Below are positions 7,821 through 50,800 of a stretch of DNA of 64,000 nt, piece after piece. A program made the translations under genes and the position numbers. The notes beneath the pieces are model-generated. The model was not told where the DNA came from and made no database searches. It was given only the letters and a program-made list of their open reading frames with translations. This DNA is from a virus (Duplodnaviria > Caudoviricetes). Within the stretch, counting starts at the first letter, position 1, and every line of letters starts with the position of its first letter. The stretch spans positions 1-64,000 of the IMG/VR virus record IMGVR_UViG_3300021255_002052; one strand, given 5' to 3'.

Positions 7821-7829
7821 GTGATAAAT

Positions 7830-9068
7830 ACGGAGAAAAAGTTCACTTGCCATGTCAAGGTCGTCGACGCGATGATGGGCACCGGCAAGACCAGCGCGGC
7901 CATCAACTATATAAATCGGAATCTCGGAGAGAAGCGCTTCCTATATATAACGCCGTATCTCGACGAGGTCGACCGCGTAAAGCGATCCTGTCCCGGCGCG
8001 AAATTCTATTCGCCGAAGCCGTTCACGAATACGCGCGGCGGTAAGTTTATAGATCTGAAAAAGCTTCTCCGGAAAGGCGAGAATATCTGTACCACCCACG
8101 CGCTTTTCCAGTTATTCGACCGCGAGTGTATCGACCTCTGTCTCTACCGGGATTACGTCCTGATCATGGACGAGGTCGCGGAGGTCGTTAGCGGCTACGA
8201 AATCGGCGAGAAGGACCTGGCGGGGTTATTAAAACTATACGCCTACGTCGAGCCGGAGACCGGGATCCTGCGCTGGCGGGACGACCAGGCCGACTACCGC
8301 GATCCGTACTATCAGAACGAGAAGCGGCTAATCGATCTAGAGTCCCTCTGCGTCTACGGATCCGACCTAACGCTCTGGCTCTTCCCGGTCGAGGCCTTCA
8401 ACGCGTTTTCGGAGATCTATATCCTGACCTATATGTTCGACGGTCAGATTCAGCGGTACTACTACGATTACTACGGCCTACCGTACGAGTATCTCTACGT
8501 TCGCGGCGATTCGACCGACACCTACGCGTTTTCTAGCGAACCGGGGCTCGAGAAGAAGTACGACTACCGCGCTCTCCTCGAGATTCTCGACAACGAGCGG
8601 ATGAATAAGATCGGCGACCCCGAATTCGCGCTTTCGAAGAACTGGTACGCCAGGAATCTCGACAATCCACAGATTAAGGAGTTAAAGAGCAACCTTTCTA
8701 ATTACTTTCAGAATATCCGCCGCTCTCCGACTTCCGACAATCTCTGGACGACTTTTAAGGACGCGAAGAAGCGCCTATCCGGCAACGGCTATACGCGCGG
8801 TTTCCTATCCTGTAACGCCCGCGCGACGAACCAGTATTCCGACCGTCATAATATCGCGTACCTGGTCAACCGCTATATCAATACGGTGGTCAAACAGTTT
8901 TTCGTAACCCACGGCGTCGAGGTCCTCGAAGATCGATTCGCGCTGTCCGAGATGGTTCAGTTTATCTGGAGATCCGCGATTCGGCGGGGAGAGCCGGTGT
9001 CCGTATACGTGCCGTCGAGCCGGATGCGGCGGTTACTCGAAACCTGGCTAGCCGAGGTATCCGCGTAA
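7830..9068 (+). CDS. SF2 (DEAD-like) helicase / replication protein, probable ACG start
   Basis: VVDAMMGTGKT Walker A, LIMDE Walker B, QFIWRSAIR motif VI-like; SD GAAAGGGGTGA precedes ACG at 7830. Confidence 0.7.
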   Translation, partial: TEKKFTCHVKVVDAMMGTGKTSAAINYINRNLGEKRFLYITPYLDEVDRVKRSCPGAKFYSPKPFTNTRGGKFIDLKKLLRKGENICTTHALFQLFDRECIDLCLYRDYVLIMDEVAEVVSGYEIGEKDLAGLLKLYAYVEPETGILRWRDDQADYRDPYYQNEKRLIDLESLCVYGSDLTLWLFPVEAFNAFSEIYILTYMFDGQIQRYYYDYYGLPYEYLYVRGDSTDTYAFSSEPGLEKKYDYRALLEILDNERMNKIGDPEFALSKNWYARNLDNPQIKELKSNLSNYFQNIRRSPTSDNLWTTFKDAKKRLSGNGYTRGFLSCNARATNQYSDRHNIAYLVNRYINTVVKQFFVTHGVEVLEDRFALSEMVQFIWRSAIRRGEPVSVYVPSSRMRRLLETWLAEVSA

Positions 9069-9126
9069 ATTCGGAATAGAGATCCGCGATTTTGAGAATA
9101 TAGATTATAGAAAGGAGGCGATACTT

Positions 9127-10161
9127 ACGGAATATATAAAAATCAGCGAATTAAAACCACATCCGCGAAACAAAGAATTCTTCGACGACATAACCGGCGA
9201 GAAGTGGGAGGAATTCAAGGAATCTATCCGCTCGATCGGCGTAGTCGAGCCGGTAGTCATAACGCCGGACAAGACTATAGTTTCCGGCCACCAGAGAGTC
9301 CGCGCGTGTAAGGAATTAGGGATCGACGAAGTTCTCTGCGATATGCGCAGCTACGATTCCGAGGATCAGGTACTACAGGCGTTAATCGAGACTAATATCC
9401 GACAACGCGGCGACATCGGCGGATCCGCGAAGAAGGTAGGGCGGAGAATCGTAGAATTGGAAAGGATTTACGAGATTAAGAACGGATCTACTGAATTTCA
9501 GGGTAACCAATACAAAGAGGTGGTACGAAAAAAATTCACACCACCTAAAACTCAAGAAGATGTGGCCGCCGAGATGGGTTTAGATCTTAGGACGTATCAG
9601 AATTACAAATGTTTAGCCGACATGATCCCCGAGCTAGAAGATTTAGTCGACACCGGGATTGTTAAAAAGACTACCGCCCTAGCCATAATGAGGGAACTCT
9701 CGCCTGAGGATCAGAAAGACTTTATAGAATCTCTCCCCGAAGTTGAGAAACTTACCGAGAAGAAAGCTCGCGAATTGATGGCGGAGTATAAGGACGAGCG
9801 CGATTCTTCGGAAAATAACGAAGAACTAAAGCAGAAATTGCGGGATGCGGAGAAAGAGCTCCGAATGACGGAAGAAGAAAGAAAAGAATTCAAGAAGAGA
9901 TATACAGAAGCCGCCGAGGAAGTAAAACGGCTCAAAGATACCGTCGGAAACAGTAAGACTTTACAGTCTGCGACTCTAGAGATTCAGTTACTAACCGCTG
10001 CGACTAATGAATATATCCGCCGACACGCCGGGAAGGTATGGGTTTTCAACGAATTTGATCAGCTAGATTCCTCGGTAAAGGAAGATTTCATTAAAGCGAT
10101 TAAAGCACTAGACGGATTTGCTCAACAGCTAATTATAAATTTAGGAGGTAACATTACATGA
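9127..10161 (+). CDS. ParB-N domain DNA-binding protein, ACG start
   Basis: In-frame extension upstream of the tracked ORF gives LKPHPRN...SIRSIGVVEPVVI...IVSGHQRVRACKELG; AAGGAGG lies 8 nt before ACG at 9127. Confidence 0.85.
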   Translation, partial: TEYIKISELKPHPRNKEFFDDITGEKWEEFKESIRSIGVVEPVVITPDKTIVSGHQRVRACKELGIDEVLCDMRSYDSEDQVLQALIETNIRQRGDIGGSAKKVGRRIVELERIYEIKNGSTEFQGNQYKEVVRKKFTPPKTQEDVAAEMGLDLRTYQNYKCLADMIPELEDLVDTGIVKKTTALAIMRELSPEDQKDFIESLPEVEKLTEKKARELMAEYKDERDSSENNEELKQKLRDAEKELRMTEEERKEFKKRYTEAAEEVKRLKDTVGNSKTLQSATLEIQLLTAATNEYIRRHAGKVWVFNEFDQLDSSVKEDFIKAIKALDGFAQQLIINLGGNIT

Positions 10162-10706
10162 GCGATACTAACGGTCTCGGAGTAAATTTCTTCGAGGAAT
10201 TCAGGCGAATGATGGAACACATCGCAAACCAGATCGAAGCTAATAAAGAGAATATCATCGTTGTTAGCACAAAGACTGACGCAGCAACCACGAACATCGG
10301 CATGTTGACCGATCGCGTCGAAAACGTCGAGAACGATGTCAAGACGATTAAAGAAACGGATCGGATCACTAGAAGTCAGAGAAGAAAGATAAAGGATACC
10401 CTCAAGAGTAGGGTCGGGCAACTCCTAAAGCTGAAATATGATGGAGGAGTCCTCGCGGATGAGTCGATCCCGGTTTCCAGGAAGTATAGCCGTGGCTTTA
10501 TCTCTAAGGCTTATTGTGACGCGAAACGCAAGGGTGTCATGGAAGATCCGGTGGAGGATACTCCGAAGAAGAATTTCCAGGATTGCATCGACTATCTCGA
10601 AGCCTGGACTCCGGAAGTCCGCGGAGGCACGGCGGGATACATGAGATATCTCGACAAACTGAAAGAGGTGGGCAAGAAGGCGAAACCGCGTAAGAAATCC
10701 CACTAA
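10158..10706 (+). CDS. ORF6C-like domain phage regulatory protein
   Basis: Coiled coil then ITRSQRRKIK...DTPKKNFQDCIDYLEAWTP, resembling ORF6C. Confidence 0.55.
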   Translation: MSDTNGLGVNFFEEFRRMMEHIANQIEANKENIIVVSTKTDAATTNIGMLTDRVENVENDVKTIKETDRITRSQRRKIKDTLKSRVGQLLKLKYDGGVLADESIPVSRKYSRGFISKAYCDAKRKGVMEDPVEDTPKKNFQDCIDYLEAWTPEVRGGTAGYMRYLDKLKEVGKKAKPRKKSH

Positions 10707-10773
10707 TCTAACCCCTATATAATAGGAAGAAACTCGTTCGCTTTCTAGAAGATATAACCGGGAGGTACCGAAA

Positions 10774-11106
10774 ATGACGAGAACGTTGTTCGTTCGAATT
10801 CTAGACGAGCTCCGCGACGGCGAAGACCTAGTCACGAAAATCGGGGCTCTGATTCAGAGTTACGACAGAAAATATAAGACAGATTTCCCCGAGCCTTATG
10901 GTCTGGTTGTAGAACACGAAGATATTATAGTGAAATTGTTAGAAGAGATTATGAGAGATCATGACGGCATGATCTCGTGGTGGTGTTTCGAGAAAGATTT
11001 CGGCCGGTCTTTCGAGTTCGGAGATGTCACGGATAACGGTCGGAATATCCCGCTATTCACTCCCGACGATCTTTGGACATATCTAACGGAAGGAACGAAT
11101 TCATGA
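10774..11106 (+). CDS. hypothetical phage protein
   Basis: GGAGGT SD; ISWWCFEKDFG motif. Confidence 0.7.
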   Translation: MTRTLFVRILDELRDGEDLVTKIGALIQSYDRKYKTDFPEPYGLVVEHEDIIVKLLEEIMRDHDGMISWWCFEKDFGRSFEFGDVTDNGRNIPLFTPDDLWTYLTEGTNS

Positions 11107-11585
11107 TAAGTCTAGAAGATATTTACGAAAGCGAGCTCCCGATCGGGTGGGTAAAAGCCTTCGGCGAAGATCTGGTTCGCGAAATTAACGCCGCAGATCC
11201 GGAAGTCGAGATTGTACAGGCGAAAGAAAAGTACGGTTCTCTCCGCTTCTATTATCATCCGTCGTCCGACGCTGTCGACGAGATCATTAGCAAATACGAG
11301 GCTCTTTCCGAACATATCTGTTTTCATTGCGGGAAACCGGATGTTCCGCGAACCGTTGCTGGCTGGATAGAACCGATATGCCGGGATTGTTATAAAAAGA
11401 TCGATTGTACCCTTTCATACGAGGAGGCCACTTCTTCTAGCAACCGAATGCCGGATTCGTACACGACGATGCGTTATACGCTATCCGGGAAGAAAGTAGT
11501 TAGGAAATACGATATTTCGGCGGACGCCGCGCGGATCCGAGCCAGATGGGAGGAAACTTATGGAAACGGTTCGAAGAGAGGTTAA
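11103..11585 (+). CDS. conserved phage protein with CxxC pairs
   Basis: QAKEKYGSLRFY motif, CFHC and CRDC. Confidence 0.7.
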   Translation: MISLEDIYESELPIGWVKAFGEDLVREINAADPEVEIVQAKEKYGSLRFYYHPSSDAVDEIISKYEALSEHICFHCGKPDVPRTVAGWIEPICRDCYKKIDCTLSYEEATSSSNRMPDSYTTMRYTLSGKKVVRKYDISADAARIRARWEETYGNGSKRG

Positions 11586-11757
11586 GACTTACCAGGTAGA
11601 ACTGGTATGCCCGAAATGCGGGAAAGGCCGGATGTCTCCTGATCTGTCCAACATCACTCTAGCCACCTATCCGCCGAAATACTTACATCTCTGCGACCTA
11701 TGCGGCTATGAAGAGCTCGTGACCGGAAAAATATATCCGTACCTCGAGTACGAATAA
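11560..11757 (+). CDS. small zinc-ribbon protein
   Basis: CPKC...CDLC; GGAGG SD. Confidence 0.7.
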   Translation: METVRREVKTYQVELVCPKCGKGRMSPDLSNITLATYPPKYLHLCDLCGYEELVTGKIYPYLEYE

Positions 11758-11806
11758 TTCCGGAATCCCTAACAACGAAAACGAGAAGTAAACAATAGGA
11801 GGCACC

Positions 11807-12190
11807 GTGGATAAAGTTAGCAGTTTCGAGTTCGTCTTCGAAAATGGCGAAAAACTGTCGATTCCAGCGAATCTAGTCGAGAGCTTCGGACTGTTCGGCG
11901 TGACCTGGAATGTTACCCAGAAATACGGCGAGGAAAAACCGGACATTTATCTAACAGTGAACGAATACTACATCATGATCAGTAACGAGGCGGATGAGCC
12001 GTACGTGGATGGCTCCGAACCCACCGTGAGTGAGAGACTCGAGGTCGGCGATATTACGGAGATCAGGCTCTACTACTCCCCCACTGAAAGATACGATACC
12101 TACTACGTCCAGTGGGATGAGGATGATGAAGAATTCGATAAATGGCAGAGTTTGGAGCGATTCGACGACATATTCGTACTAAGGAGGTGA
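11807..12190 (+). CDS. hypothetical acidic protein
   Basis: AGGAGG SD, GTG start, 127 aa. Confidence 0.7.
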   Translation: MDKVSSFEFVFENGEKLSIPANLVESFGLFGVTWNVTQKYGEEKPDIYLTVNEYYIMISNEADEPYVDGSEPTVSERLEVGDITEIRLYYSPTERYDTYYVQWDEDDEEFDKWQSLERFDDIFVLRR

Positions 12191-12195
12191 TTGTT

Positions 12196-12372
12196 ACGGC
12201 TGAAAATAGAACATTTCGAGACGGGATGAAGGCGGGAATCGTCTTATCTCTTAAAATGCTCGAAACGACACCGATCATGCAAGCAACGAAGAGCTTAACA
12301 GAAACGTACAAAAAACTGGAAACGCTCGTGGACGAGAACGGCGAATCTCTAACCGAGAAAAATCCGGAATAA
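12196..12372 (+). CDS. small hypothetical protein, probable ACG start
   Basis: AAGGAGGTGA SD then ACG GCT GAA AAT. Confidence 0.55.
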   Translation, partial: TAENRTFRDGMKAGIVLSLKMLETTPIMQATKSLTETYKKLETLVDENGESLTEKNPE

Positions 12373-12414
12373 GTTTATTAGGAATCAGGAAGTATTTATT
12401 AGGAGGAAACGATT

Positions 12415-13050
12415 ATGACGAAAGAAAGCATGACAGTACACCAGGCACTATGTGAACTGAAAGTCGCGGATAAGCGGATCAAGAAACTGATCGACGAGAC
12501 TTATTGCTATACCAGAAAAGCGAAGGAGACAAAGGTTTCCGGTCGCCCGGTCGAAGAAGTCGAGGACGAGATCAAGGCTAATTATCAGAAATTCGTCGAT
12601 CTCACGAATCGGGTAAACGCGATCAAGGCCGCGCTCAGCGATTCTAACGCGAAGACTGTGATCACGGTTGCCGGAAAACAGATGACGGTCGCCGAGGCAA
12701 TCTACCTCAACAACTACGGGGTTAGAAATAAGAAGGACTTCGTTGCCACGATTATGGCCGAGCTTTCCGTGTGCCAGGATAAGGTCGACGAAGCTAACGA
12801 GAAGCTCGAGGCTCGCTGCGACAAGGCCGTTGCCGATATGTACGGCACCGACGGAGCAAAGAAGAACTCGAAAGAAGCCGAGGAGTACCGGAATACGTTC
12901 TATAACCAGAACGCCCAGGTCCTCGTGGATCCGATCGGTATCATGGCGGTCGCTAAGAAGATCCAGGAAGAGATCGACGAGTTTGAGTCGACGGTAGACG
13001 CCGCGATTCAGATGTCCAACGCGACTACGACGATCGAGATCGAGTACTGA
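12415..13050 (+). CDS. long coiled-coil protein (DIP1984/septicolysin/DUF6847-like)
   Basis: MTVHQALCELKVADKRI, IKAALSDSNAKTVITVAGKQMTVAEAI and VDAAIQMSNATTTIEI fit the family pattern as I recall it. Confidence 0.6.
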   Translation: MTKESMTVHQALCELKVADKRIKKLIDETYCYTRKAKETKVSGRPVEEVEDEIKANYQKFVDLTNRVNAIKAALSDSNAKTVITVAGKQMTVAEAIYLNNYGVRNKKDFVATIMAELSVCQDKVDEANEKLEARCDKAVADMYGTDGAKKNSKEAEEYRNTFYNQNAQVLVDPIGIMAVAKKIQEEIDEFESTVDAAIQMSNATTTIEIEY

Positions 13051-13058
13051 TAAATCCT

Positions 13059-13393
13059 TTCCTTGCGTAACGAAAACTTCGAAATACGGGCTCTCGATTC
13101 GCTCGGCGGTTCCGAACGAGATTAAATAACAAAATAGACCGCCTCCTATACAAGAAGAAAAATAAGGAGGGCGTACAGGTTCTATAAAGAATGATAGAAC
13201 AGTACATCTTTGTTAAAGCCGGACTGGTTACTAGTTACTAGTTACTGACTATCGGTTACTTTTTACTCAGTATAAAACCAGTACTGTTTACGCCTTATTT
13301 CGTATTTTCTATTATTTCGGAAAATCTTCGGCACACAGTTCACGCTGCTGCTCGTATCTAGCGAAGAAATCTGCGAAGCTGTTACGTAAGGAA
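13059..13393 (+). ncRNA. putative ~335-nt structured RNA with GTTACT repeats in its apical loop
   Basis: 13-bp closing helix 13059-13071/13381-13393, at least six nested helices, a GGCGGT/ACCGCC pseudoknot, no credible ORF. Confidence 0.65.
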
Positions 13394-13419
13394 TTTCTAG
13401 CCGGGGTAATCCCCGATTA

Positions 13420-13501
13420 GCCGGCGTGGCGGAAATGGCAGACGCGCCAGATTTAGGATCTGGTGTCTAGCGACGCGCGGGTTCGAATCCCGCCACCGGC
13501 A
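13420..13501 (+). tRNA. tRNA-Leu (anticodon TAG)
   Basis: Cloverleaf; CCAGA-TTTAGGA-TCTGG anticodon arm, variable arm, GGTTCGAATCC. Confidence 0.9.
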
Positions 13502-13551
13502 CTTGCCCGACGAGGGCGCTTCGAGAGTCGACTCTCTTACTCAGGAGGAAC

Positions 13552-14310
13552 ATGGTAAAGAAGAAATTAAAAGAACAACAGGGAATACTCGTAAAGAATG
13601 TCGGCCAATGTACGAACTTCGGCGGCCTCGACATAGACGGTAAGACCCTGTATACGATCAAGACGAAGAAAACGAATGATCTATCCGCGATTTCGGTATA
13701 TCCGGATTACCAGAAAGCTAAGCGAACTAGTCACAAGTTCCGCAACTGCCTCAATCACGGAAACGATCTAGCGTATCACGACGGGAAACTGTACGTCGCG
13801 CCCTGTGATAGATTTTGCGGGGTTGTGGATACGAAGACCTGGGATTTCAGGCGGCTAGAGTGTCCGAACATTCAGATTTCTGGAATAACTTACTATAAAA
13901 ACGGGAAGTTTATAGTGTTGTCGGCCGCCTGGGGCGATTCGTACTGGCTTTCTATAATGAAGCCTCTCGGGGATAAGATTTCGCTCATCGCTTCCTGGGA
14001 AGTCGCGAATCCGATGGCGGCGCTCGGTTATACCACGTCACAGGGAATAACTTATTCCGCTAGTTACAAGGAAGTCTTCACGGTTTTCACTAACGTAGAT
14101 GGCCGGAGTAACGTGATCCTGAGATCCGGCATTCGGGCAACAGAGCCGGACTTTTGTTACACCAGTAAGCGGTCAGATAGCGGCCTATACGAGCTGGAAG
14201 GAATCTCCTTCGGCCCTAACAACGTCTTGGTTCTAGGATCTAATCTCCCGTCCGGTAAGGATTCTGTATTCACGTCCGACATTTTCAAACGGTCGCCTCT
14301 CGCGGCCTAA
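13552..14310 (+). CDS. probable beta-propeller protein
   Basis: Blade-like repeats HGNDLAYHDGKLYVA, ISGITY, SQGITY, ELEGISF. Confidence 0.55.
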   Translation: MVKKKLKEQQGILVKNVGQCTNFGGLDIDGKTLYTIKTKKTNDLSAISVYPDYQKAKRTSHKFRNCLNHGNDLAYHDGKLYVAPCDRFCGVVDTKTWDFRRLECPNIQISGITYYKNGKFIVLSAAWGDSYWLSIMKPLGDKISLIASWEVANPMAALGYTTSQGITYSASYKEVFTVFTNVDGRSNVILRSGIRATEPDFCYTSKRSDSGLYELEGISFGPNNVLVLGSNLPSGKDSVFTSDIFKRSPLAA

Positions 14311-15294: not shown

Positions 15295-15378
15295 CGGAAC
15301 GTGATCAAATGGTAAGATACTGGAGGCAATGGTACGCCCATACCGCCGGAAATGTGGGTTCGAATCCTGCCGTTCTGA
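15295..15378 (+). ncRNA. tRNA-like RNA with extended anticodon arm (class B, copy 1)
   Basis: Acceptor CGGAACG/CGTTCTG, D arm, GGTTCGAATCC T loop; no canonical 7-nt anticodon loop. Confidence 0.55.
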
Positions 15379-15876: not shown

Positions 15877-15990
15877 CGGAATGTAGTTTAACTGGTTAAA
15901 ACGTACCCGCCGGATAGCGACCGTATGCCGGGAACAGTGACGAGTAAGCTGGTAACGGGTGAGAAGGGGGTTCAAGTCCTCCCGTTCCGA
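15877..15990 (+). ncRNA. tRNA-like RNA with a ~46-nt anticodon loop insert (class B, copy 2)
   Basis: Acceptor CGGAATG/CGTTCCG, D arm GTTT-AACTGGTTA-AAAC, anticodon stem ACCCG/CGGGT, T loop TTCAAGT. Confidence 0.6.
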
Positions 15991-28565: not shown

Positions 28566-28566
28566 T

Positions 28567-39240: not shown

Positions 39241-39912
39241 ATGAAAATAGGTGAATTATCCAAAGAGCTAGGGGTCAAGAATAAGGACCTGATAACATAC
39301 CTGAGAGAGGCCGGGTTTTCCTCGGTCTCTTCTCATGTTCAGGCCGCGACAGAAGACATGATTGTCATGGCTCACAAACACTTTGATGCACTTGAGGAAA
39401 CTCCTAAATAGGAGGAACCTGCTGAGCAGCCGGTAGAGAAATCTTCCCAGAAGAGGCCGCTTAAACGGTTCGCTCTCGACGATATGATCCCGTGTCGGTC
39501 TGTGACACCTTACGGTCTCATCCTTGAATCTCCTGATAGGACACTGATCTACCGTTGGAGCAACTGGGGCGACGTAGAACTTGTCAGATACAAGGATCTC
39601 CAGTCATGGAGACGGAATCCGATCGTTACAGACCCGAAGATTCTGATCGAAGACGCTGATCTGGTCGAGCAGTGGAAACGCGATATCGGAGATGTCTATA
39701 AGCCGTTCATTGGGGTGGATTATCCGGAAGAACTGTTTGATCTGTCTGACGACGATTTTGAGAAGCTTCTTAGAACCGGGAATCGGACGGTTAAGCAGAT
39801 CATTGCGACCACAGCAATGTCGATGATCCGCGCCGAGAATTATCCAGACGTGAGGAAACTCAGGATCATTGACGACGTCCTCGGGACGATGCTGATGCAG
39901 GTCCTTAGGTAA
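39241..39912 (+). CDS. head-module protein with an IF2-N-like N-terminal domain (TAG recoded)
   Basis: MKIGELSKELGVKNKDLITYLREAGFSSVSSH joined in frame through TAG at 39409 to the tracked fragment. Confidence 0.65.
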
Positions 39913-39932
39913 TATAAAAAGGAGGAGGCTAA

Positions 39933-40379
39933 ATGGAATATGAAGTTATTTTCAATCGCTTCCTCTCCCGTATAAAAGATGTTTCTCTGCTTTCTCTAGA
40001 GGAAAGATACAGGAACGAAATGTTACAAGATTATCTAATCGGTGCGCTTGGTATTCCGTATGTGCGTAAGATCTTCTCTACCATAGAAACAGACGACGAC
40101 TACGGAGAGCTCTCTTACACTCTAGCGGACGATTTTACGACCGACGTAGATTCGGCTGATCGTTTCGTCCTGGAGGTTCTAGTTCAGGCGATGACAGTAG
40201 AGTGGCTGCGCCCACAGATAGATAACGCACTCAATCTCGCTATGGTAATTGGTGGTAAGGAAGAAAAAGTTCTTTAGAACAATTTGAAAGCCAACATGTA
40301 GCGTCTCCATGACGCGGAAATTCGGCTTCAAAAATATATTAGAGACCACGGCTACTATCAGGGAAACTATGAGTCTTAA
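39933..40379 (+). CDS. head-tail adaptor-like protein (TAG recoded)
   Basis: YEVIFNRFLSRIKD...EWLRPQI; position after the capsid gene. Confidence 0.65.
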
Positions 40380-40719
40380 ACACGAATACGGGGAATTTAC
40401 TTCGGAACAGGTCGCTAAAGAAAAGAAAGCGCTATAGAGTTCTATATTCTTCCTGCTCTTAGCGGTGGACCCTAAGACGGCAGACCGATATCCGAACGTA
40501 GATGTCGACAAGACGTTTACAAACTTGCTCAGGCGAATCTCCGGGCTTAACACTCTCCTCTTCTGCTAGCGAGAGCTGGTGGACGTGATGAGTTACCTGG
40601 AAGAGGCGAGAACTGAGTACAATAAAGATGATTTCGACTTCGGTTCGTATAGGAATTTAGTCCTTACGGCCGGGGCTGAAGTTATGAAGCTTAAGGAGGT
40701 GGATGATGGCCTCGCTTAA
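40369..40719 (+). CDS. hypothetical virion-module protein (TAG recoded)
   Basis: Open under code 15; overlaps both neighbours. Confidence 0.65.
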
Positions 40720-41944
40720 TGCTTTAACTAGTTTCTATGGTGCAGAACCTAAAATCGGTAAGCAATTAAAAACTATAGCAGATAGCGCTATGGAATAGAC
40801 ATTCTATAACGATATCACGACGCGAAGATGTTATATCTACGATTATTTTAGTGATGATCCTGAAACGGAAGATCTGGAAGTATTCGGAACGGACTACGTG
40901 CCGCCAGAGGGTTCCAAGAAGATTCCGGTCGATCTCAAGTTCATGATCAAAGGATATAGATCTCTCGCGAAGGATGATCCTGAGTACTACGTATAGTTCT
41001 TGCCATCGGAATGGAACAGAGTAGTCGAAGATCCGGAAAATCAGTAGATTATTCCGAATTACTTCCAGGATCGCTATGGTAAGTTCGGTGTCAGATATCC
41101 GGTAGGACTCTATATTGACGTACCCGACGATCGAGGTCGCTATCAGCGATGGTTGGTCGTATACGAGGATGTCGCTAACTAGTTCCCGAAGTTCGGCGTA
41201 CTTCGCTGTAACTATCAGTTGGACTGGGTTATAGACAAACCGGAAGGTAGATTTAAACGAAAAATGTGGGGAGTATAGAGAACACAGAGTTCGTACAACG
41301 CAGGAATTTATTCCTTCGATAAATCTACGGTAATGGAAAGTCAGTCTCGTTTCTGGCTTCCCTGGAACTCTATCTCTAGAGAGATTTTCTATAATCAGAG
41401 GATCATCCTATCCATGCCTATGGATATCCCCCTCTGTTGGCAAATTTCTAAAGCTCAGAACACCGAACCGCGCGGAGTACTTATGCTTACGCTATATTAG
41501 GATACTTACAATCCTGTTACCGATTATATAGATAAAACCAATCCCGACCATTGGCGGATGTATGCCGATTACTATAAGTTCCCCGCTACCCCGGAATTTT
41601 CGGAGAACGAGGAAACGGAAAACACTCCCACAGGAGAACTGCGTATAAGTAGCAACACGGCTCTGGTAAAGATCGGAGGATCTTATAAGACTCTGACGGC
41701 TACGATCTATAACGAAAAATCGGAAGAGATCACTTCTGACTACTCTTCTTTCTCGTGGTCCTTCGCCCTGGGCGACGGGACTGACGCTACGGATCTGGTT
41801 TCCACGTCGGAGGTTCCTGGTTCTGCTAATAAAATCAAAGTGAAATTCCTCGGAGACGAGTCGTATGTCGGTCAGCGATTAGTCGCTACTTGTACCGCAG
41901 ACGATCTAACTGACGAACATAGCTTTGACATCCTATTCATGTAA
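40706..41944 (+). CDS. head-closure/neck-like protein (TAG recoded)
   Basis: Single frame under code 15; YPVGLYIDVPD...WLVV; Ig-like C-terminus. Confidence 0.65.
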
Positions 41945-41954
41945 GGAGGGATAA

Positions 41955-42494
41955 GTGATGGATGCTGAACTCTCCGAACTGATAAAGTACAAAAAAGAAT
42001 TCGGTAAAGATAATATCCACTATAAGGAAATTATCAAACAAAAACTCATGAACAACCGAAAACTACTGGTTGCGTTAGACGCTGACGGCCTGGATCCAGA
42101 TGAGGACCCGGATGCTTATGTTGGCACACATCTAATCCCCTACTACGTGCTTCCCGACGTTAAAACTGAGGCACAAAATCTAGTCTGTTTCGAGACGGCC
42201 TTCACGGAAGTCCCTCGCTACAACGAAACCCGTCGCTACATGTAGATCATCTTCTATATTCTCTGTGATCCGAAAAATATCTATGATCGGAACACGGGCA
42301 TCGCCCGACACGATCTGATCGCGGCAATTATAGAAGACGAATTCAACTACTGTAACGATTTTGGGTACTAGTTGACTATAGTGTCAGACCGTCCATACGC
42401 CGTAGACTCGAATAAGTACGTTCTTCGGACTCTGACATTCGAGCAGATAGATATCCATAATATGCTAAGAGATGGAGCTCTCTATAACAAATGA
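41955..42494 (+). CDS. tail terminator-like protein (TAG recoded)
   Basis: TGIARHDLIAAII motif; position in the neck module. Confidence 0.6.
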
Positions 42495-43276
42495 CGAGCA
42501 CTAACTTAACCGAAAACGCCATTGAGTGCGGATTCGATAAATTGAAGATGTTCTTCGGAGAGACGTATGTTGTTAACGACGCGATTTCTATATACGAAGT
42601 GACGATACAAGAGATCGTCGATTTCGGAGAAGAACATTTCTTCGCCTGTATAGCGCCGTTCGTGAGCAATCCTACAACGTACAGACTCTAGCTCTGGGAC
42701 ATGGGTATCGACTGGTGTGAACTGTCAGATTTCGATCTATTCTGTATGCTAGCGCCGACTTTACAACCAGAAATTACCTGTATTTTGTTCGGCCGCTATG
42801 ATTTTACGAATCTCTAGTTGATGATGCGTAAAGATACGGAAGAACGTGTACTATACGATCCGACCACGGATACGGTAGTAGACAACGCTACCTATATTAT
42901 TATGCGCGAGTACATCCGTATGATGATGAACTAGTATCCGAGGAGGGAATTTACCCGAGGTAAACAGACTAAATTAGCATTGATAGACGAGGATAGGATA
43001 AATATACGCAACGCGGAAAGAAAGAGGAGAATCGAGGGCGGCCGGAAGGTCGAATCCTATCTCTTCTCTCTGATTTCTACTATGTTGATAACTCCGGGCT
43101 TCAAGTATAAGAAGAACGAACTAAGAGAAGTCAACATAGCGGAATTTATGATTAGTGTCGAGAAATTCCAGGTGTTTAAGGCGACAGAATCTCTGTTGCG
43201 GGGCATGTATTCCGGATTCTTAGACACTAGCAAAATAGATACCCAGAAAGAACTTAATTGGTTCAGGGAATCTTAA
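42491..43276 (+). CDS. conserved tail-module protein (TAG recoded)
   Basis: PTTYRL(TAG)LWDMGIDW...PGFKYKKNEL...GMYSGF in one frame. Confidence 0.7.
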
Positions 43277-43356
43277 TAAGGTAAAAATGGCGACCGTTTA
43301 TTGGTTGTCTTTTTTTATGTAAAAATCACATTCATATTTAAAAAGGAGGAATCCAC

Positions 43357-44172
43357 ATGTTCTAGATTAACGGTATTGTGGTCGATAGAATCCAGATTGC
43401 TGTAGCCGAGTCTCTTAAGGAAGCCGATTAGGGCGCTATCCTCTATACTCTGACTCAGCTCAACACCGCTTCTATTGAGACCACCGCAGACTCTACTGAC
43501 GCTGTTGACCAGAAGGGTAACCTCATCAAGCGCTTCTACAATGCGAAGAATGCTAGCTTCACGGCTACGAACGCATTCCTGGATCTGAACGCAATCGGCG
43601 GGCTGTCCGGTGATAACTCCACCACTATCGCTTCTGATGGTGCTGGCGCTTTCGTTGCTCCGAAGGTTGAGGTTGTTAAGGTTGCTGACGCTACCACTTT
43701 CGATATGACTGGCTACGTAGCTGGTACTGTCGCTGTAGCGGGTGTTAACAACCAGAACGCTGTTGTCGAGAAGTATACTCTTGGCACCGCTGCTGCCGAG
43801 AAGAAGTTCGCCATCGCGGAGAATCATTTCGTTCCGCCGACGGGACCGGATGCTAACGTTACCAAGTATCTGATCTCCTTCGATCGTACCGTCAACAACG
43901 GTATCAAGGTTATCAACAGCTCCAAGGACATCCCGTCCACGGTTAAGCTTGTTCTGAAGTGCCTCGCGATCGATCCGTGCCATCCGGGAGAACTGAAGGC
44001 TCTTTACGTGACCTTCCCGTCCTTCCAGCCGTCTCCGGAAGTAAGCTTCGACCTTGCTACCGACGCCACCTTCGATTACAGCGGTGACGCCCAGGTCGAT
44101 TACTGCGGCGAAGACCAGGCTCTTTACATCCTGACTTGGGCAGACGAGGATCAGGAAGATTCCACTTATTGA
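43357..44172 (+). CDS. major tail tube protein (TAG recoded; codon 3 is TAG)
   Basis: AAGGAGG SD; MF(TAG)INGIVVDRI...LYTLTQL...PSFQPSPE; terminator-like hairpins on both sides. Confidence 0.75.
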
Positions 44173-44246
44173 TTAAGTGATTCGGTCTAACTGATATTAA
44201 CGGGGGAGCTTAGGCTCCCCCTTCTGCTCGAAACACGGAGGTAATT

Positions 44247-44600
44247 ATGGAAAAAGGAAGAACTTGCCTAATCTGTGGCAAAAAGTATAAATTCTGCCGT
44301 TCTTGTACCGGCAAAGAACCTGCTTGGCGTACACTGTTTGACAGTGACAACTGCTACGCTATTTATGACGCTATTTCTAATGTAAAGATCGACAAGTTAA
44401 AAAGCTTAGACCTGTCGGAAGCGACTGAAGAAGTCCAGAATCAGGTTAAAGAAATGATCGCTCAGAGAGAGCCGAAGAAGACCGAAGAGGTCGAGAAAGC
44501 TGTTAATACGAATCATGAAACAGCTGCTAGTGTAGAGAAGCCGATAGATAATAAGTCGGTAGTCGCCAATAAGCGAAAATTTAATCATAAGGGTGACTGA
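44247..44600 (+). CDS. Cys-containing hypothetical protein
   Basis: RTCLICGKKYKFCRSC. Confidence 0.7.
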   Translation: MEKGRTCLICGKKYKFCRSCTGKEPAWRTLFDSDNCYAIYDAISNVKIDKLKSLDLSEATEEVQNQVKEMIAQREPKKTEEVEKAVNTNHETAASVEKPIDNKSVVANKRKFNHKGD

Positions 44601-44649
44601 CTCTAACTAGGGTTGGTCGCCCATTTTTTCGTTCTAAGGGAGGTAGCAT

Positions 44650-44901
44650 GTGGAAGCGATTACGAGCGGATTGACAGGAAAGACGTACGACCTGCGAAAA
44701 TTGGCAAGAGTGGCAGACCGTCGCCTCCAGACTTTATATATAAAGAACGGCATAATGCCTGTGGAGATGTATTGGTCCTAGGACCGAAACGAGCGAGACA
44801 TTATTATCATGCTCTTCCCCAAGAATAAGACGACCGAGCTGTATAAAGTCTGGAAAGCTAACAACCCCAAAAAAGGTGAGGCCGATGCGTTACATGACTA
44901 A
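44650..44901 (+). CDS. small hypothetical protein (TAG recoded)
   Basis: GGGAGGT SD, GTG start, frame open under code 15. Confidence 0.55.
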
Positions 44902-45277
44902 CCGCGAATTTTAGCGGGAATTGGAAAAGATCAAAAAGGATAATGAACAGAAGGAACTGCTGCGGGAGTTGCGTAGTGAACGTCATAGATTAGATGAACC
45001 TAAAAAGAAAATACCGACCAGCAAGAAGATTGTATGGTCATGTATCCTCCTAGTCCTTGAGATCGTGTTGTTTTCAGAATTTATGATGTGGCACACTGGG
45101 GACCTCTCCTCTCTTTATGTCTTAATAGGCCTAGTTGCGACACTAGCACCTATCATCGTCAAGTTCTATTCAAAGAGCCAGGCGGAAAACACTAAGGGAG
45201 GAATAGTTTATGACGCCGCTTTTGCTCCCGCCGACGAGGATTTAGACTTAGAAAGTGAGGCGGACGAGGATGCTTAA
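44885..45277 (+). CDS. two-TM membrane protein, holin-like (TAG recoded)
   Basis: Two hydrophobic segments, KSQAENTKGGIVYD; TAG at codon 10. Confidence 0.6.
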
Positions 45278-45662
45278 AGGATTACAGAATTTTCTGGAAT
45301 TCGTTAATAATAACTGGACTTCTATTCTGGTTATTATCGGTCTGATTATAGGCCTTTACAAGAAAATTGAATCATTCTGGAAACTGTCGACAGATCAGAA
45401 AGTAGCCATAGCCAAACACGAAATCGAGGAAGCTATGCTAAAGATGATTACGGACTCCGAACTGGAGTATGAAACCTGGAAGGAATCCGGCGAGATTAAG
45501 AGATCGCAGGTAATCAAACAGATTTACGCTGAATATCCGATCCTGGAGAAGGTCGCGGATCAGAATTCCGTGATCGCGTGGATAGATACGCAGATAGACA
45601 ACGCGCTAGTGACTTTACGTAAGGTGATCGAGGAAAATCGGACCACTAAGGAAGCTGAGTGA
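45270..45662 (+). CDS. single-TM holin-like protein
   Basis: NNWTSILVIIGLIIGLY...AMLKMITDSE...GEIKRSQV. Confidence 0.55.
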   Translation: MLKGLQNFLEFVNNNWTSILVIIGLIIGLYKKIESFWKLSTDQKVAIAKHEIEEAMLKMITDSELEYETWKESGEIKRSQVIKQIYAEYPILEKVADQNSVIAWIDTQIDNALVTLRKVIEENRTTKEAE

Positions 45663-45667
45663 TTCCG

Positions 45668-46183
45668 ATGGATAATTTAAGGGAATTACTACATCTTAGT
45701 TGGGGCAACTGGGTTATCTAGCTATTCGTTTTATGTGTCGCGGTCGTATTTATCTCGGACACGATCAAGAAGGCCTTCGCTGTGTTTAAGAAACCCGTCG
45801 ATCAATGGACTCAGATAGAGGAAAACGAGAAAGCGATCAAGTCCCTGGAGGGACGTGTTGACCGCTTAGAAGAACGTCTGGAGAAAGCCGTCGAGGAGTC
45901 CATCCATCACGACGAAAAGATCGAGTATTCGATTAAGCAGGTCGGAGACAAGATCGAGAAAATGAGCGAAGTCGCCGGGCGGCGCACAGTCGTCTCCCTG
46001 AGATCTGAACTCTATAAACTCCATCACGATTTTATGGAGCAGGGTTACGTAACAGAATCCGGGCTCCATACCTTTATGGAGATCTATAACATTTACGAAG
46101 AAGCGGGAGGCAACGACATAGCCAAAAAGAAGCTGCTGCCTGAGGTTTAGCAGTTAGAGCTTCGGCGGGATATGCCAGATTAA
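45668..46183 (+). CDS. membrane-anchored coiled-coil protein, lysis-module associated (TAG recoded)
   Basis: N-terminal TM segment, coiled coil, YEEAGGN. Confidence 0.6.
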
Positions 46184-46184
46184 T

Positions 46185-46646
46185 ATGGGTAAACGAAGTA
46201 AATACAAAGTGGACATGTCTAATTCCGCGAAGAAGAAACGCACGGTCCACGACGAGCATACCGGGAAGGATATCACTTTTGATAGTGCCATCGAAAAAAG
46301 GTACTATGACGAAGTTGTACTCCCCGGGTTTTTATCCGGTGAAATAGTCGACTACGATCTCTAGCGGCGGTACACTCTTCTACCCTCTTTCCGGAGGGAA
46401 AACGGAGAACTTGTAAGGGCTATTACCTATATAGCTGATTACGTGCTTAAGTTCGCTGACGGGCACGAAGAGATCAAAGATACGAAAGGTGCGGGTTATC
46501 TAGTCGACCCACTGGCTCGCATTAAGCGGAAATTATTTTATCACGCATTCCCAGATCTCGATCTTGAATGGATCACTTGGACTAAGGCTACGGGTTGGGT
46601 TAACTGGGATGATTTCATGAAGGAAAAGAGGAATAAAAGGACATGA
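46185..46646 (+). CDS. DUF1064-like PD-(D/E)XK endonuclease (TAG recoded)
   Basis: ITFDSAIE, L(TAG)RRYTL, ITYIADY, DTKG, IKRKLF. Confidence 0.75.
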
Positions 46647-47212
46647 CAGTAAAAGAATTTATAGGAAAATATCATACGGCAAAGAAGGTCCCGGGAGGGG
46701 TCGAAACTTTTCTGGAACAGAGTCTGGTGACCAGATACGTTCCTTACCTAACGAAAAAGGTTATTTGTCAGAAAATCGTTGACGCCACTTATTACGTGAC
46801 GGAGAAGAATGATGACGGTGTGGTCGTTAATCGGAGATTCCGTGTAGACTCCGCGAACACCTATCTCCTGTTCATCACTAGATTGATCGCGACGTATTAC
46901 GGATTAGAACTATCCGAGAATATCGCCGACGATTACGATCTATTGAATCAGGAAGGGCTGATAGCTCCGGAAGACGGAGAATCAGTGACTCTGATCACCA
47001 GCATCCCGGCAACGGAATATGCGGAGTTCAAAGCGTTGTTAGATATGGCTAAAGCTGATATCACGGCTAACGAATATGAGCCGGGTGCGTATATCTCCAA
47101 TAAGATCAACAATCTCGGACTCATTCTCGGAACTGCTATTCAACCGATTTTGGATGCGGCGGGGATCACTCCGGAGGATATCAGGACTTTATTATTGAAT
47201 TCGCGTAGTTAA
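46643..47212 (+). CDS. hypothetical protein (tail chaperone position)
   Basis: 189-aa ORF upstream of the tape measure gene. Confidence 0.65.
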   Translation: MTVKEFIGKYHTAKKVPGGVETFLEQSLVTRYVPYLTKKVICQKIVDATYYVTEKNDDGVVVNRRFRVDSANTYLLFITRLIATYYGLELSENIADDYDLLNQEGLIAPEDGESVTLITSIPATEYAEFKALLDMAKADITANEYEPGAYISNKINNLGLILGTAIQPILDAAGITPEDIRTLLLNSRS

Positions 47213-47220
47213 ACGCAGTC

Positions 47221-47256
47221 AGGCTCCCGTGGTGTCATAGCTACGGGGGCTTTTTA
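47221..47256 (+). terminator. intrinsic terminator
   Basis: GGCTCCCGTGG-loop-CTACGGGGGC followed by a T-run. Confidence 0.65.
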
Positions 47257-47270
47257 AAAGGAGGGGAAAT

Positions 47271-47855
47271 ATGAATTTAGCAGGTTGGGCTGCTCGGTTA
47301 GAATAGAGAATAGAGGCGGGAAAGAAAATCGCGAACAAGAAAACAATACAGCTCGCTGCGAAAAAATCTAAGATGTTCGCAAAATATGCGGCAAAGGAGT
47401 TTTATAGTTCTTATGATCCCCTCTTTTATGGTAGAACTTATGATTTTTACAATCGACTTTTCATTATTGAACCAAAAGAGGAAGAGATTTTTGTAAAGGC
47501 ATCTTCTGCCGGTCTATGGGGGCATAGGGTATCTGGCGATTATATTTTAGAAGTTGTCGCTAATCAAGGATATCATGGAGGAGCCATGAGTGGTCCATCA
47601 GATTTTCACGGTAATTCGCATCCGGCACCAGGAACACCGTATTGGCGTAAACCAGCTACAGAATATGACGGTATCCCTCCATATTCCCTCTGGGGAAGAC
47701 CCGCAGAGAAAACCGAGTCTCCAATAGAGATTTTTTTAAGGTATTTCCGTGCTGCTGAAAAGAGCGATTTTAGTGATTGCTGGAATAAGACTTTTTTGAA
47801 GTATGTGTATACAAAAAACTTTCAAGATTTCTTAAAGATTAAAATAGAGTTATAA
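47271..47855 (+). CDS. tail-module protein (TAG recoded)
   Basis: AAGGAGG SD; FYSSYDPLFYGRT, GYHGGA. Confidence 0.65.
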
Positions 47856-47872
47856 CCGAAGGAGGTGGTCTA

Positions 47873-50800
47873 ATGAGTGAAGAAATTAGTTTAGTTAAAG
47901 GTACAATAGAGATTGATTCTTCTAAATCCGTTGAAGCTACTAATGCGGTCGTTGGTGCATTGAAGGAAATGGCGGAACAAGCTGGCCAGACAAAGAGAGC
48001 TATCTCTGATGTATTTAAAACGCTCAACAACGCAGGGAATAGAAAAGGTATTACGGGATATGCCGAGTCTATGGAAAAGGCCTTAGAAGGTGTAGGAGAA
48101 ACGGCGAAAGATGCTCAGGATCAAATAAGAACATTAAATGATTTTATGAAGACCACTTCTAAGGGTGGGAAATTCCTAAAATCCAAAGAAGAATTAGCAG
48201 ATGTTATTGCCGGTAGCCTTATGCCGCAAGCTAAAGGTTTCGCCAAAAAAGAAGACCGGTCAGGGTTTGGCCGTACAGCGGATACGCTAGCTTAGTATGT
48301 GAACGCATACGTAGCCAAAGGTGGAACTTTGGACGATTCTGATAGTGTGCTGAAAAAGGCATTAAAGAAAAATGGTTTTGACCTTGATACTCTCATGGCG
48401 ATAAGCAATGAAGGGAACGCCGGAGATAAAACAGTCGAGAATTTACAAAATATCTACGGTATTGTAGATAAATTAGCCAGCACCAAACAGGTGGATCTAA
48501 GCGCAATTATCGATTCTAGTGCTTACCTTAAAGAGCTGCACATCATAGAGGCCGAAACTACGAGAACCATGGATAATATCATGGCAAAACTTGCAGGAAA
48601 AAGCAAAGGCCCTTCTGTCTAGAAAGATGATATCGCATCGAGCAAGACTTCATCACAGAGAAGTGCCGATATTAAAAGATTCGCTAAGACTCTTCTGAAT
48701 AGGGATATTCCTCTATCAGATGATGATAAAAAGTTGGCCGCGACATTATTAGGTGAAATTGAAGGTGAATTACGGTCAAGTGAAAATACCGATCTACGAA
48801 ATCAATTAAAGAATAAGCTTAAATTTAAAGGAAACTTCGAAGGCCCCGGGACTATGATGGACTTCTGGGATGCATTAAGAGAAAACGCGGGTGATGGGTC
48901 TATTGATGTAGAAGAAGCCATAAAATCTATAGATGTGAAATACACTCAAAGAAAAAAATAGGCATTAGACACGACGATCGCTAAGAAAGCTAAGAATGCC
49001 GCAGAAGAAGCTTTAAAGAGTGTTGATGGCTTAAACAAAGACCAGCTCAGATAGATGAGAGAAAAAATAAATGGCATGCTAGATGAATCGATCGCAAAGG
49101 AAATAGAAGAAGCATACGATGAAAAAATGAAAGATTTTGAGTGGCTGACGGACGAAGAGATCCAGGACAGATGGTTTAATGAACATACAGATGAGAGGGG
49201 AAAAGTCAAAGCTGGGCGCCGTAATGAAAGATTTGATGGCAGTAAAGGTGGCAAGAAAACGGAAAAAATTGGCGGAGATGCTGCGTATATCGATTATTTG
49301 ACTAGTAGAGGAATAGATCCGTATGCCAGGGAAGGCTTTACCGGTGATCTAACAGACGAAGAAACCAACAAAAGAGCATTAGAATTGATCAAGTCAAGAA
49401 AAACGCTTAGGGGGTTAGGTGAACAAGCATCGAAAGCGTACGCTGAGCAGGAAACGGAAGCGATTGAAAATCTTACGAATAGACTTCAAGAGGCAAACGA
49501 TAAGGTAGCTGAATTAAAACAGAATGCCGCAAAAATGTTAGATGGAGATGGGACAACAGAGGAAATCAAAAATATCATTAACGAATTAGATAATCTTAAA
49601 AGCGCTCTTGGAGAAATTTCTAAAGATGCATCAAGAGCCAAATTGACTGATCTGATCCCGGGATTTTATGATATAGATTCAACAAAGGATGACTTGTTAG
49701 ATTTAAGGTCTAACCTTAACAAAAGGTACGGAGAAGCTGAGAGAAAACAGCAGAGGGATGCTAATTTAAAGAAGGCTCGAGAAGCTTTCCAAAAAAACGC
49801 TAACATTGATCAATTCATGAAAGATGACGCATCTTTTGAAGATATCAAAAGAGCTATCAACGAAGAGAAAACGGCAATAGAAAATCTGAAGAATCTACAG
49901 AAGCAAAATGGAAAAGAAACATGGAAATTTACTCCGGAGGAGCTCGGTGGCGATATAGATGCAAAGATAACAGATTACACTCAAAATCTCTATACCCTAG
50001 CTGCCGCGCTAGATAAAGTTGCTACGGCCCAAGAAGAGGCTGCGGCAGAGACAGATAAAGCAGGGTCTTTCTATGGAGAAGCTAGTGATACGGTACTATC
50101 TGTAGCTGAGTAGCTTGGGGTTGCAAGGAAAGATAAGAACGGAAAACTATCTGTCGATGTTCGTGATATAGACAGGAATAGAGGGTTTTTAGCTGGTAAT
50201 GATTAGGCTGTCGCGTTTCTCGATATGCTAGAGAAATATGCGAGAAGGGATTCAGAGAAATTTGGATTCAAGGATTATACGGCAGACGACCTTAAAAAGA
50301 AAGTGTCCTCCGAAGAAAACGTTCGCGATGTACAGAATTATGTGGACGCCATCGAAAAAGGACTGGATCAATCTTCTGAAGAATTCCAGTAGATTCAAGA
50401 AGCTTATAAACGCGCGGTCGAGAGAATTCAGAAATTTGGTGAAGGACTGTCCCATTTCAAGATCGACGATTATTCGGACCCGAAACAAGTTCTGTCGGCT
50501 ATAACGGATAAGAATCTAGGCCTCTCAGATTACGACATTGAAAAAAATAGCCTTTTAGAAAGAACACACTCGCTCGCGGAGAGAAGGAAAGATATAGGGA
50601 AAACAGCAAGTGACCAAAGTGAAGAGAATATCCGGAACAGAATAAAAGCGTATAAGGAATTGCTACCCGAATACCAAGCGCTTCAAAAAGATCTCGACGC
50701 GTCCGAATTTAAGGACGATTTTCTTGCGCCAAAAGGCGGGATAAAAGAGTTTAAATACCTGGCCGGTGAAATTCAAGGCTTGATGGACCTCATCAAGAGG

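Follow-up and report, generated by a model that had tools for sequence, protein, structure and literature searches.

A segment of 335 nucleotides (nt) on the + strand of the virus record IMGVR_UViG_3300021255_002052 encodes a real, doubly pseudoknotted non-coding RNA. The segment lies at 13059-13393 of the window, which denotes the whole stretch of DNA that was analysed (64,000 nt, taken from a 109.8-kilobase (kb) IMG/VR viral contig of bovine-gut type habitat), within the 369 gene-free bases that separate a gene at 12415-13050 from an array of transfer RNA (tRNA) genes whose first member is tRNA-Leu. The RNA is a divergent full-length member of a widespread phage RNA family that always stands behind the same small helical protein gene, hereafter the partner gene. 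The most likely reading, to which we assign a probability of roughly 45%, is that the structured RNA and the DIP1984-like partner protein form a phage protein-RNA particle, in which an array of 7-nt units (heptads) would serve as a multi-site track. The components of the locus are as follows.

12415-13050, +: partner gene, an open reading frame (ORF) for 211 amino acids, encoding a helical protein with a small beta cap; TGA at 13048-13050, no in-frame TAG.
13059-13393, +: the structured RNA at full length, 335 nt; RF03100 fixes its 5´ end and model R1 its 3´ end.
13059-13071 and 13381-13393, +: P1, the closing helix, TTCCTTGCGTAAC/GTTACGTAAGGAA, with 12/12 in-register pairs in the window.
13072-13076, +: junction GAAAA after P1; among 31 relatives, columns G14 and A16 never vary and A15 and A17 hardly do, in agreement with the RAGATH-27 consensus.
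13077-13081 (CTTCG) and 13084-13091 (ATACGGGC), +: 5´ strands of the second pseudoknot, with partners at 13362-13366 and 13350-13357 in the P2 loop.
13092-13121, +: hairpin H, TCTCG (13092-13096) with CGAGA (13117-13121), carrying GGCGGT (13105-13110) in its loop.
13105-13110 and 13138-13143, +: first pseudoknot, GGCGGT/ACCGCC, the sole pairing within the Rfam RAGATH-27 model.
13161-13226, +: variable middle domain, with a local hairpin (GTTCTAT 13179-13185, ATAGAAC 13194-13200) found in the minimum-energy fold only.
13227-13316, +: heptad array of 7 + 5 units, GUUACUN type and UAY-centred, with a 4-nt slip at 13272-13278.
13326-13330, +: 5´ strand of P2, CUUCG, following a conserved AAAAU; its partner is CGAAG at 13374-13378.
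13350-13357 (GCTCGTAT) and 13362-13366 (CGAAG), +: 3´ strands of the second pseudoknot in the P2 loop, forming helices of 8 and 5 base pairs (bp).
13374-13393, +: 3´ strand of P2 (13374-13378), conserved GCUG (13378-13381) and 3´ strand of P1 (13381-13393).

Two models delimit the RNA. The Rfam family RF03100 matches 13059-13144 at 28.9 bits, with an expect (E) value that varies with the length of DNA searched (0.003 and 0.016, and 0.085 in another search stretch). R1, a model of the 3´ domain built from 31 relatives with the window excluded, has its sole match in the 64 kb at 13310-13394 (27.6 bits, E 0.0036). For the + strand, the folding energy is -93.7 kcal/mol (z -3.4; 0/100 shuffles as good); the - strand reaches z -2.4. 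Fold energy alone provides modest support, and the decisive evidence comes from the relatives. G-U pairs arise only on the + reading, which identifies + as the RNA strand.

P1, P2, hairpin H and both pseudoknots are kept by compensatory changes. Pairing in P1 was assessed in register by setting the 12 nt that precede the GAAA anchor against the 12 nt that follow GCUG in 68 distinct flanks; this test was used instead of RNAduplex on long segments, which was too noisy for P1. All 12 pairs form in 42/68 loci and at least 11 in 48/68, among many unrelated sequences, while non-self partners gave 12/12 in 6% of trials, all inside near-identical clusters. RNAalifold on 11 relatives of the window's clade predicts 23 pairs, 19 of which show double compensatory changes; its 14 P1 pairs include 12 with double changes. 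Hairpin H carries double changes at 4/4 predicted pairs and has 35 different 5´ strands among the relatives. P2, defined as the 5 nt after AAAU(C) against the 5 nt before CUG, is fully paired (5/5) in 46 of 48 RNAs, which between them use 13 different pair sets. On the 31-sequence alignment, 99.4% of its cells are paired and 38 cells are double-changed, a result matched by 0/500 shuffles; slid controls are 32-45% paired.

The pseudoknots were supported by the same kind of change. In the first, at least 6 Watson-Crick bp form in 24/46 relatives compared with 11% for non-self partners in a register-free helix test. RNAalifold on a MAFFT alignment of the 5´ domains returned no pairs, because the pseudoknot strands lie out of register between rows. 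The relatives show about 29 different sequence pairs for CTTCG/CGAAG and about 27 for ATACGGGC/GCTCGTAT. The 3´ strands of these two inner helices lie inside the P2 loop and cross P2; they therefore form a second pseudoknot rather than a nested extension of the closing helix.

An initial annotation, made from the letters of the window alone, had described the region as a series of nested helices. The segments that it listed are all present at or near where it had placed them, including the gene at 12415-13050 and an RNA from 13059, and its closing helix, TCTCG/CGAGA hairpin, GGCGGT/ACCGCC pseudoknot and two inner helices are each backed by compensatory changes. The outer half of the nested fold holds; the nesting of CTTCG/CGAAG and ATACGGGC/GCTCGTAT does not, since it overlooked P2, which these helices cross. 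Four further helices proposed as a central arm find no support: they overlap one another by 2 nt, have no counterpart in the relatives, and pairing between the middle domain and the array does not rise above shuffles (window z -1.6, family median -0.43). The 3´ strand of this arm coincides with the second block of the array (13282-13310). The middle domain itself (13161-13226) cannot be aligned with the relatives. In one relative (L045), a complete tRNA-Leu gene (L045:2283-2356) lies within the variable middle region of the RNA (L045:2156-2600).

The same covariation bears on the reading that the region is no RNA at all and instead either encodes a small protein, with TAG translated as sense (13188-13409), or acts at the DNA level, for example as an iteron-bearing origin. 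Late genes of this phage do use TAG as a sense codon, and the array is traversed by a 73-codon frame that contains three TAGs. However, no ribosome-binding site is visible by eye before the frame 13188-13409, and neither a coding sequence nor a DNA site would produce base-pair covariation with G-U on one strand only. The coding reading was rejected on the ground that the frame is not kept in the relatives, whose median longest open frame is 37-42 codons. We regard both forms of this explanation as highly improbable.

Among known RNA families, only RAGATH-27 (RF03100), an orphan candidate small RNA of 86 positions, is recognizable in the window RNA; the rest of Rfam gave no match to it, and Rfam at gathering thresholds gave none in the gap between gene and tRNA array. 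The first 86 nt of the RNA align with the model end to end (1-86), sharing its conserved 5´ sequence (UUC.UUG..UA.CGAAAACUU) and its pairing of a loop with a downstream segment. Over its 5´ 30 nt the RNA hardly departs from the consensus, and GGCGG(U)/(A)CCGCC is paired as in the model (7 bp there), with one non-standard end pair. At 28.9 bits, the window lies far under the cut-off of 76.1 and was classed as a divergent relative rather than an Rfam-grade member; the relative in Dulem virus 39 passes the cut-off at 77.2 bits. The RAGATH-27 model covers about a quarter of the molecule and lacks P1, P2, the second pseudoknot, the heptad array and the partner gene. In the literature library searched, there was no paper naming RAGATH-27, DUF6847 or PF20935, nothing relevant for DIP1984, and no publication on the full RNA or its link to the partner protein.

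The arrangement of gene and RNA recurs far beyond the window. A tblastn search located the partner gene in 733 phage records, which span T5-like Salmonella/Escherichia phages and phages of Vibrio, Pseudomonas, Bacillus, Klebsiella, Erwinia, Lactococcus and others. Loci were read by hand in Salmonella phage S131 (T5-like), Bacillus phages Hobo/BM15 and Bc431v3, Vibrio phage Brizo, Lactococcus phage 949, Pseudomonas phage UNO-G1W1, Clostridium phage D-1873, Clostridioides phage LIBA6276, Erwinia phage Ea35-70, Cronobacter phage GAP31, Dulem virus 39 and two gut contigs. In 12/12 hand-checked phages, the partner gene is followed on the same strand by an RNA of 295-455 nt with a covarying closing helix, inside a stretch of 345-1234 nt without a credible gene. 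The order of parts is common to them: a long-range closing helix, the GAAA junction, a hairpin whose loop pairs downstream, short repeats, AAAUCC and a final GGCUG. A shared scaffold with variable repeats, which the initial annotation had proposed to look for in the 3´ flanks of homologs, is indeed present there. Automatic scoring of P1 extends this picture to 48 of the 68 distinct loci behind the partner gene. The window conforms to the pattern, with a phrog_1491/DIP1984-like gene ending at 13050 and an RNA beginning at 13059 on the same strand, P1 flanked by GAAA on the 5´ side and GCUG on the 3´ side, AAAUC-P2 and P2-CUG enclosing a loop that pairs back, and a 7-nt array between the middle domain and P2. 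Searched as DNA, the phage collection gave a match to the tRNA alone. From comparison of these sequences, the pairing of gene and RNA is genuine and conserved very widely.

The partner protein matches phrog_1491 over its full length (E 2.6e-47). No Pfam or NCBIfam match was found at E up to 0.1 and 1, respectively, including PF20935 and the DIP1984-type NCBIfam model, and PADLOC gave no match. An AlphaFold2 (AF2) model with a predicted local distance difference test score (pLDDT) of 84.5 comprises long helices capped by a small sheet. Its best structural match is DIP1984 of Corynebacterium diphtheriae (3kdq_A; Z 11.2, 150/152 residues, root-mean-square deviation 6.2 Å), far above the runner-up fold at Z 7.2. 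Foldseek likewise recovers DIP1984 (E 7e-3), and an ESM Atlas cluster partly labelled DUF6847 matches with template modelling (TM) scores of 0.57/0.68. The protein is thus predicted to have the DIP1984 fold, and the likeness holds at the level of the fold only: the fold is common to the two proteins over the whole of DIP1984 (PDB 3KDQ; DUF6847, PF20935), whereas sequence identity is only 16%, the phage protein is longer by ~60 residues and no profile matches. The resemblance to DIP1984/DUF6847 proposed in the initial annotation therefore stands for the fold and fails for the sequence profile. DIP1984 is without known function, so the likeness explains nothing yet about the phage protein.

Two copies of the partner protein are predicted to bind each other, with an ipSAE score of 0.63 compared with 0.00 for the best of 3 controls; a score of 0.63 is attained by 20/30 proteins solved as same-chain pairs and by 1/23 solved as single chains. 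Contact agreement between the dimer runs is at least 94% and the partner pLDDT at least 87, and the protein is predicted on this basis to be a symmetric homodimer. The name 'tail fiber protein', carried by phrog_1491 and by many RefSeq records (e.g. NC_048009.1, NC_020873.1 and NC_055800.1), has no support, given the position of the gene among early and tRNA genes and the DIP1984-like helical fold of its product.

The array is strictly phased. Seven UAY triplets at 13229-13271 are exactly 7 nt apart and five more follow the slip at 13282-13310, giving a spacing of 7,7,7,7,7,7,11,7,7,7,7 over ~90 nt. Five (G)TTACT units had been noted at 13227-13267; these are present, and by UAY spacing the full count is twelve. 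The automatic tract call in the window covers 49 nt with the consensus GTTACTn, and an exact search of viral contigs for the triple GTTACT unit gave no match. Period 7 is a property of the family, being the best lag in 40/48 RNAs, with repeat tracts of mean length 94 nt (7-21 units) compared with 27 nt in shuffles. The core of the unit varies by lineage. An A-rich core (YAAAGNU) occurs in nearly all lineages outside the window's clade, and U-type cores (UAUUG and UUACU; UAUU/UUAC) were read by eye in all 13 rows of the protein clade that contains the window. Vibrio phage Brizo has a different core again, UUAAG. Assignment by base composition mislabels borderline tracts (L027, L029 and L097), which were re-read by motif. 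GUUACUN of the window is the sharpest version of the U type.

In three studies, RNA libraries yielded contigs that span 12943-13318, 12914-13344, 13009-13381 and 13115-13330 (jointly 12914-13381); they lend weak support to expression. Their depth on the RNA is 41, 9, 11 and 14.6, compared with 2-6 on neighbouring coding contigs, values that cannot rank expression; parts of the partner gene are uncovered, from which no inference is drawn. The contig starts at 12914-13009 were not taken as a transcript start, since they coincide with a joint in strain divergence. The DNA of the window and of its nearest relative (L021) is 56-76% identical to ~12990; from 12996 onwards identity is 95-100%, a level that extends over the RNA, the tRNA and the gene that follows. 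This places a recombination joint at ~12990, within the last 60 bases of the partner gene, and two protein variants (78% identical) stand beside the same RNA. Overall, the RNAs are 97% identical and the partner genes 76%. The one helix change read, C13291 to U opposite G13173, converts a G-C pair to G-U and keeps the pairing; the other differences fall in loops, linkers or the array, and three in the middle domain are all at unpaired places.

A tRNA gene commonly follows the RNA. In the window it is the following.

13420-13502, +: tRNA-Leu (anticodon UAG), first in the tRNA array, 26 nt past the RNA end, called by ARAGORN and Rfam.

The 26-nt spacer holds a small G+C-rich hairpin (13401-13416, +; CCGGGG taat CCCCG). 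A same-strand tRNA starts at most 100 nt past the RNA end in 18/32 representative loci, often at 3-14 nt. In seven loci (L033, L058, L092, L103, L047, L013 and L031), it begins just 3-7 nt past the closing helix, so that 5´ processing of the tRNA would free the 3´ end of the RNA. RNase P cleavage at the tRNA thus probably defines or trims the 3´ side.

This position also suggests a cis-acting element that ends or protects the messenger, or initiates processing of the tRNA precursor, and is without function after its release. The place between gene and tRNA array and the short distance to the tRNA in many relatives fit such a role. The size of the RNA (335-455 nt), its two covarying pseudoknots and its phased array, however, go far beyond the needs of a terminator or stabilizer; no tRNA lies behind the RNA in the loci of the T5-like, Lactococcus 949 and C. 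difficile phages, and a promoter and terminator scan gave matches no more than expected by chance, with no terminator-like site. A purely cis-acting role is therefore improbable.

In the protein-RNA particle that we favour, the RNA and the gene upstream of it would be transcribed together at the head of the tRNA array, and an RNase P cut at the downstream tRNA would most likely help to free the 3´ side of the RNA. P1, the adjacent P2 and the base pairs between the P2 loop and the stretch that follows P1 lock both ends into a compact core. The core would present the track of ~90 nt, probably single-stranded, with its twelve units at exact 7-nt spacing. Dimers of the DIP1984-like protein would bind the RNA, with one site per heptad or heptad pair, and the resulting particle may act early in infection. 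The best guess for its target is the tRNA/translation sphere, in view of the constant position beside tRNA genes. The two-component arrangement proposed in the initial annotation gains from the conserved gene-RNA pairing and the predicted dimer; the decoy and template roles that it offered as alternatives gained no support.

Oligomeric proteins on multi-site RNAs are well known from TRAP with (G/U)AG repeat RNA and from CsrA with CsrB/RsmZ. These systems resemble the proposed mechanism in their short, regularly spaced motifs and several identical protein sites. They show no homology of protein or RNA to the locus described here, which has a 7-nt unit with a 3-4-nt core on a knotted scaffold, in contrast to a leader or a row of hairpins, and for which binding is a proposal only.

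Several points weigh against a protein-RNA particle. Gene order by itself does not establish a complex, and the RNA-library contigs cannot prove transcription or map ends, given that such libraries can hold DNA. Predicted openness is no greater in the array than elsewhere in the RNA (0.43 vs 0.39 unpaired, p 0.10). The predicted dimer reflects the model's own confidence and may mirror the solved crystal of DIP1984. The tracking of repeat type with protein clade is equally explained by common descent. Finally, with 97% identity in the RNA and 76% in the gene between the window and its nearest relative, the fit of protein and RNA is either loose or rests on the shared last 18 codons.

That divergence of the gene beside a constant RNA also favours an RNA-only machine or scaffold, for example a homo-oligomer, in which the gene is a conserved neighbour and the tail of its messenger is the RNA. 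The core is closed by RNA-RNA contacts alone, and ROOL and GOLLD provide a precedent as large, heavily pseudoknotted phage or prophage RNAs near tRNA islands that form RNA-only cages without a known partner (PMC12286853). ROOL and GOLLD are longer, at ~580 and 800 nt compared with ~300-450 nt here, and lack a phased heptad array or a fixed upstream protein gene (PMC12286853); no fixed neighbour gene has been reported for either. Their Rfam models found no match in 12900-13550, even at E up to 10, and none in the flanks of the relatives. In phages of Proteobacteria and Bacillota alike, at 27-39% protein identity, gene and RNA stay adjacent, in the same order and on the same strand, a constancy that would be difficult to account for if the two were functionally unrelated. 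An RNA-only role is judged unlikely.

The array itself raises a further explanation, that the RNA is a sponge or decoy which titrates an RNA-binding protein or ribonuclease of the host, perhaps a nuclease used in defence, and that the partner protein helps or regulates it. Known sponge RNAs (CsrB/RsmZ) are typified by single-stranded arrays with many sites, and phages use tRNA genes against tRNA-cutting defences; the module sits among tRNA genes, and the A-type core YAAAG is common to phages of very different hosts. On the other hand, no candidate host factor emerged and no PADLOC or toxin-like match was obtained. The switch of the core to UAYU in one clade is more in keeping with a phage partner that co-evolves than with a target present in all hosts, and a sponge is considered quite unlikely.

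Tandem short repeats beside a protein gene are the only feature in favour of a type III toxin-antitoxin pair or of a template RNA for a polymerase. The initial annotation had raised both, the former as a nuclease decoy resembling a type III antitoxin. ToxIN, CptIN and TenpIN also occur in phage-related DNA and combine tandem RNA repeats with an adjacent protein gene, but their repeats of 34-45 nt lie upstream of a ToxN/AbiQ-like endoribonuclease gene, whereas the 7-nt units here lie downstream of a gene for a helical-bundle protein that matches no endoribonuclease and has no PADLOC match; the terminator between the two parts is also lacking here. A template of the retron or DRT kind would have nothing to act on, since no reverse-transcriptase domain was found in the products tested from 7821-14310 with Pfam and PHROGs, and a 7-nt period cannot encode a peptide repeat. 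The two proposals are scarcely credible and, like the coding and DNA-element readings, are effectively excluded.

Elsewhere in the window, the use of TAG as a sense codon is evident. A tRNA with anticodon CUA and a long variable arm (28566-28657, +; labelled Pyl by ARAGORN) lies upstream of late genes at 29435-47855 that carry 2-9 in-frame TAGs per gene, and many late frames are broken by TAG alone. In-frame TAG is absent from long frames between about 7.8 and 25.8 kb, a block that includes 12415-13050, and stop-codon recoding appears to be limited to the late genes. At 47843-64000 (+), 5386 codons run in one frame to the end of the window without TAA or TGA and with 69 TAGs; this frame is a giant gene that is readable only with TAG as sense. 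A group I intron lies at 37366-37735 (+; RF00028, 61.9 bits, above the gathering score). Two tRNAs at 15295-15378 and 15877-15990 (+), found by Rfam (41 bits) and uncalled by ARAGORN, exceed normal tRNA length (84 and 114 nt) and are either genes with an intron or non-standard tRNA-like genes.

A broader version of the particle is that the pair constitutes a near-universal module of large tRNA-carrying phages, T5 included, in which dimers would sit on a phased, single-stranded track of the doubly knotted RNA whose 4-nt core (mostly AAAG, and UAYU in this clade of rumen phages) is rewritten with the protein. This generalization is unlikely as it stands. If true, the rewriting of the core with the protein would amount to a small, evolvable code of protein-RNA recognition, and the particle that uses it would act on the tRNA/translation machinery or on tRNA-directed host defence.

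The gene and RNA pair is present in hundreds of sequenced phages, including relatives of T5 and phages of Bacillus, Vibrio, Lactococcus and clostridia, in which databases label the gene 'tail fiber protein' and leave the RNA as empty space. To this family, the window adds a UAY-based instead of an A-rich core, a phage in which TAG is a sense codon, and signs of the RNA among rumen RNA libraries. A knotted, conserved scaffold that carries a phased array with a clade-dependent core offers a handle on whether the protein reads heptads. Because family members occur in easy laboratory systems, the role of large phage RNAs beside tRNA genes is open to ordinary genetics and biochemistry.

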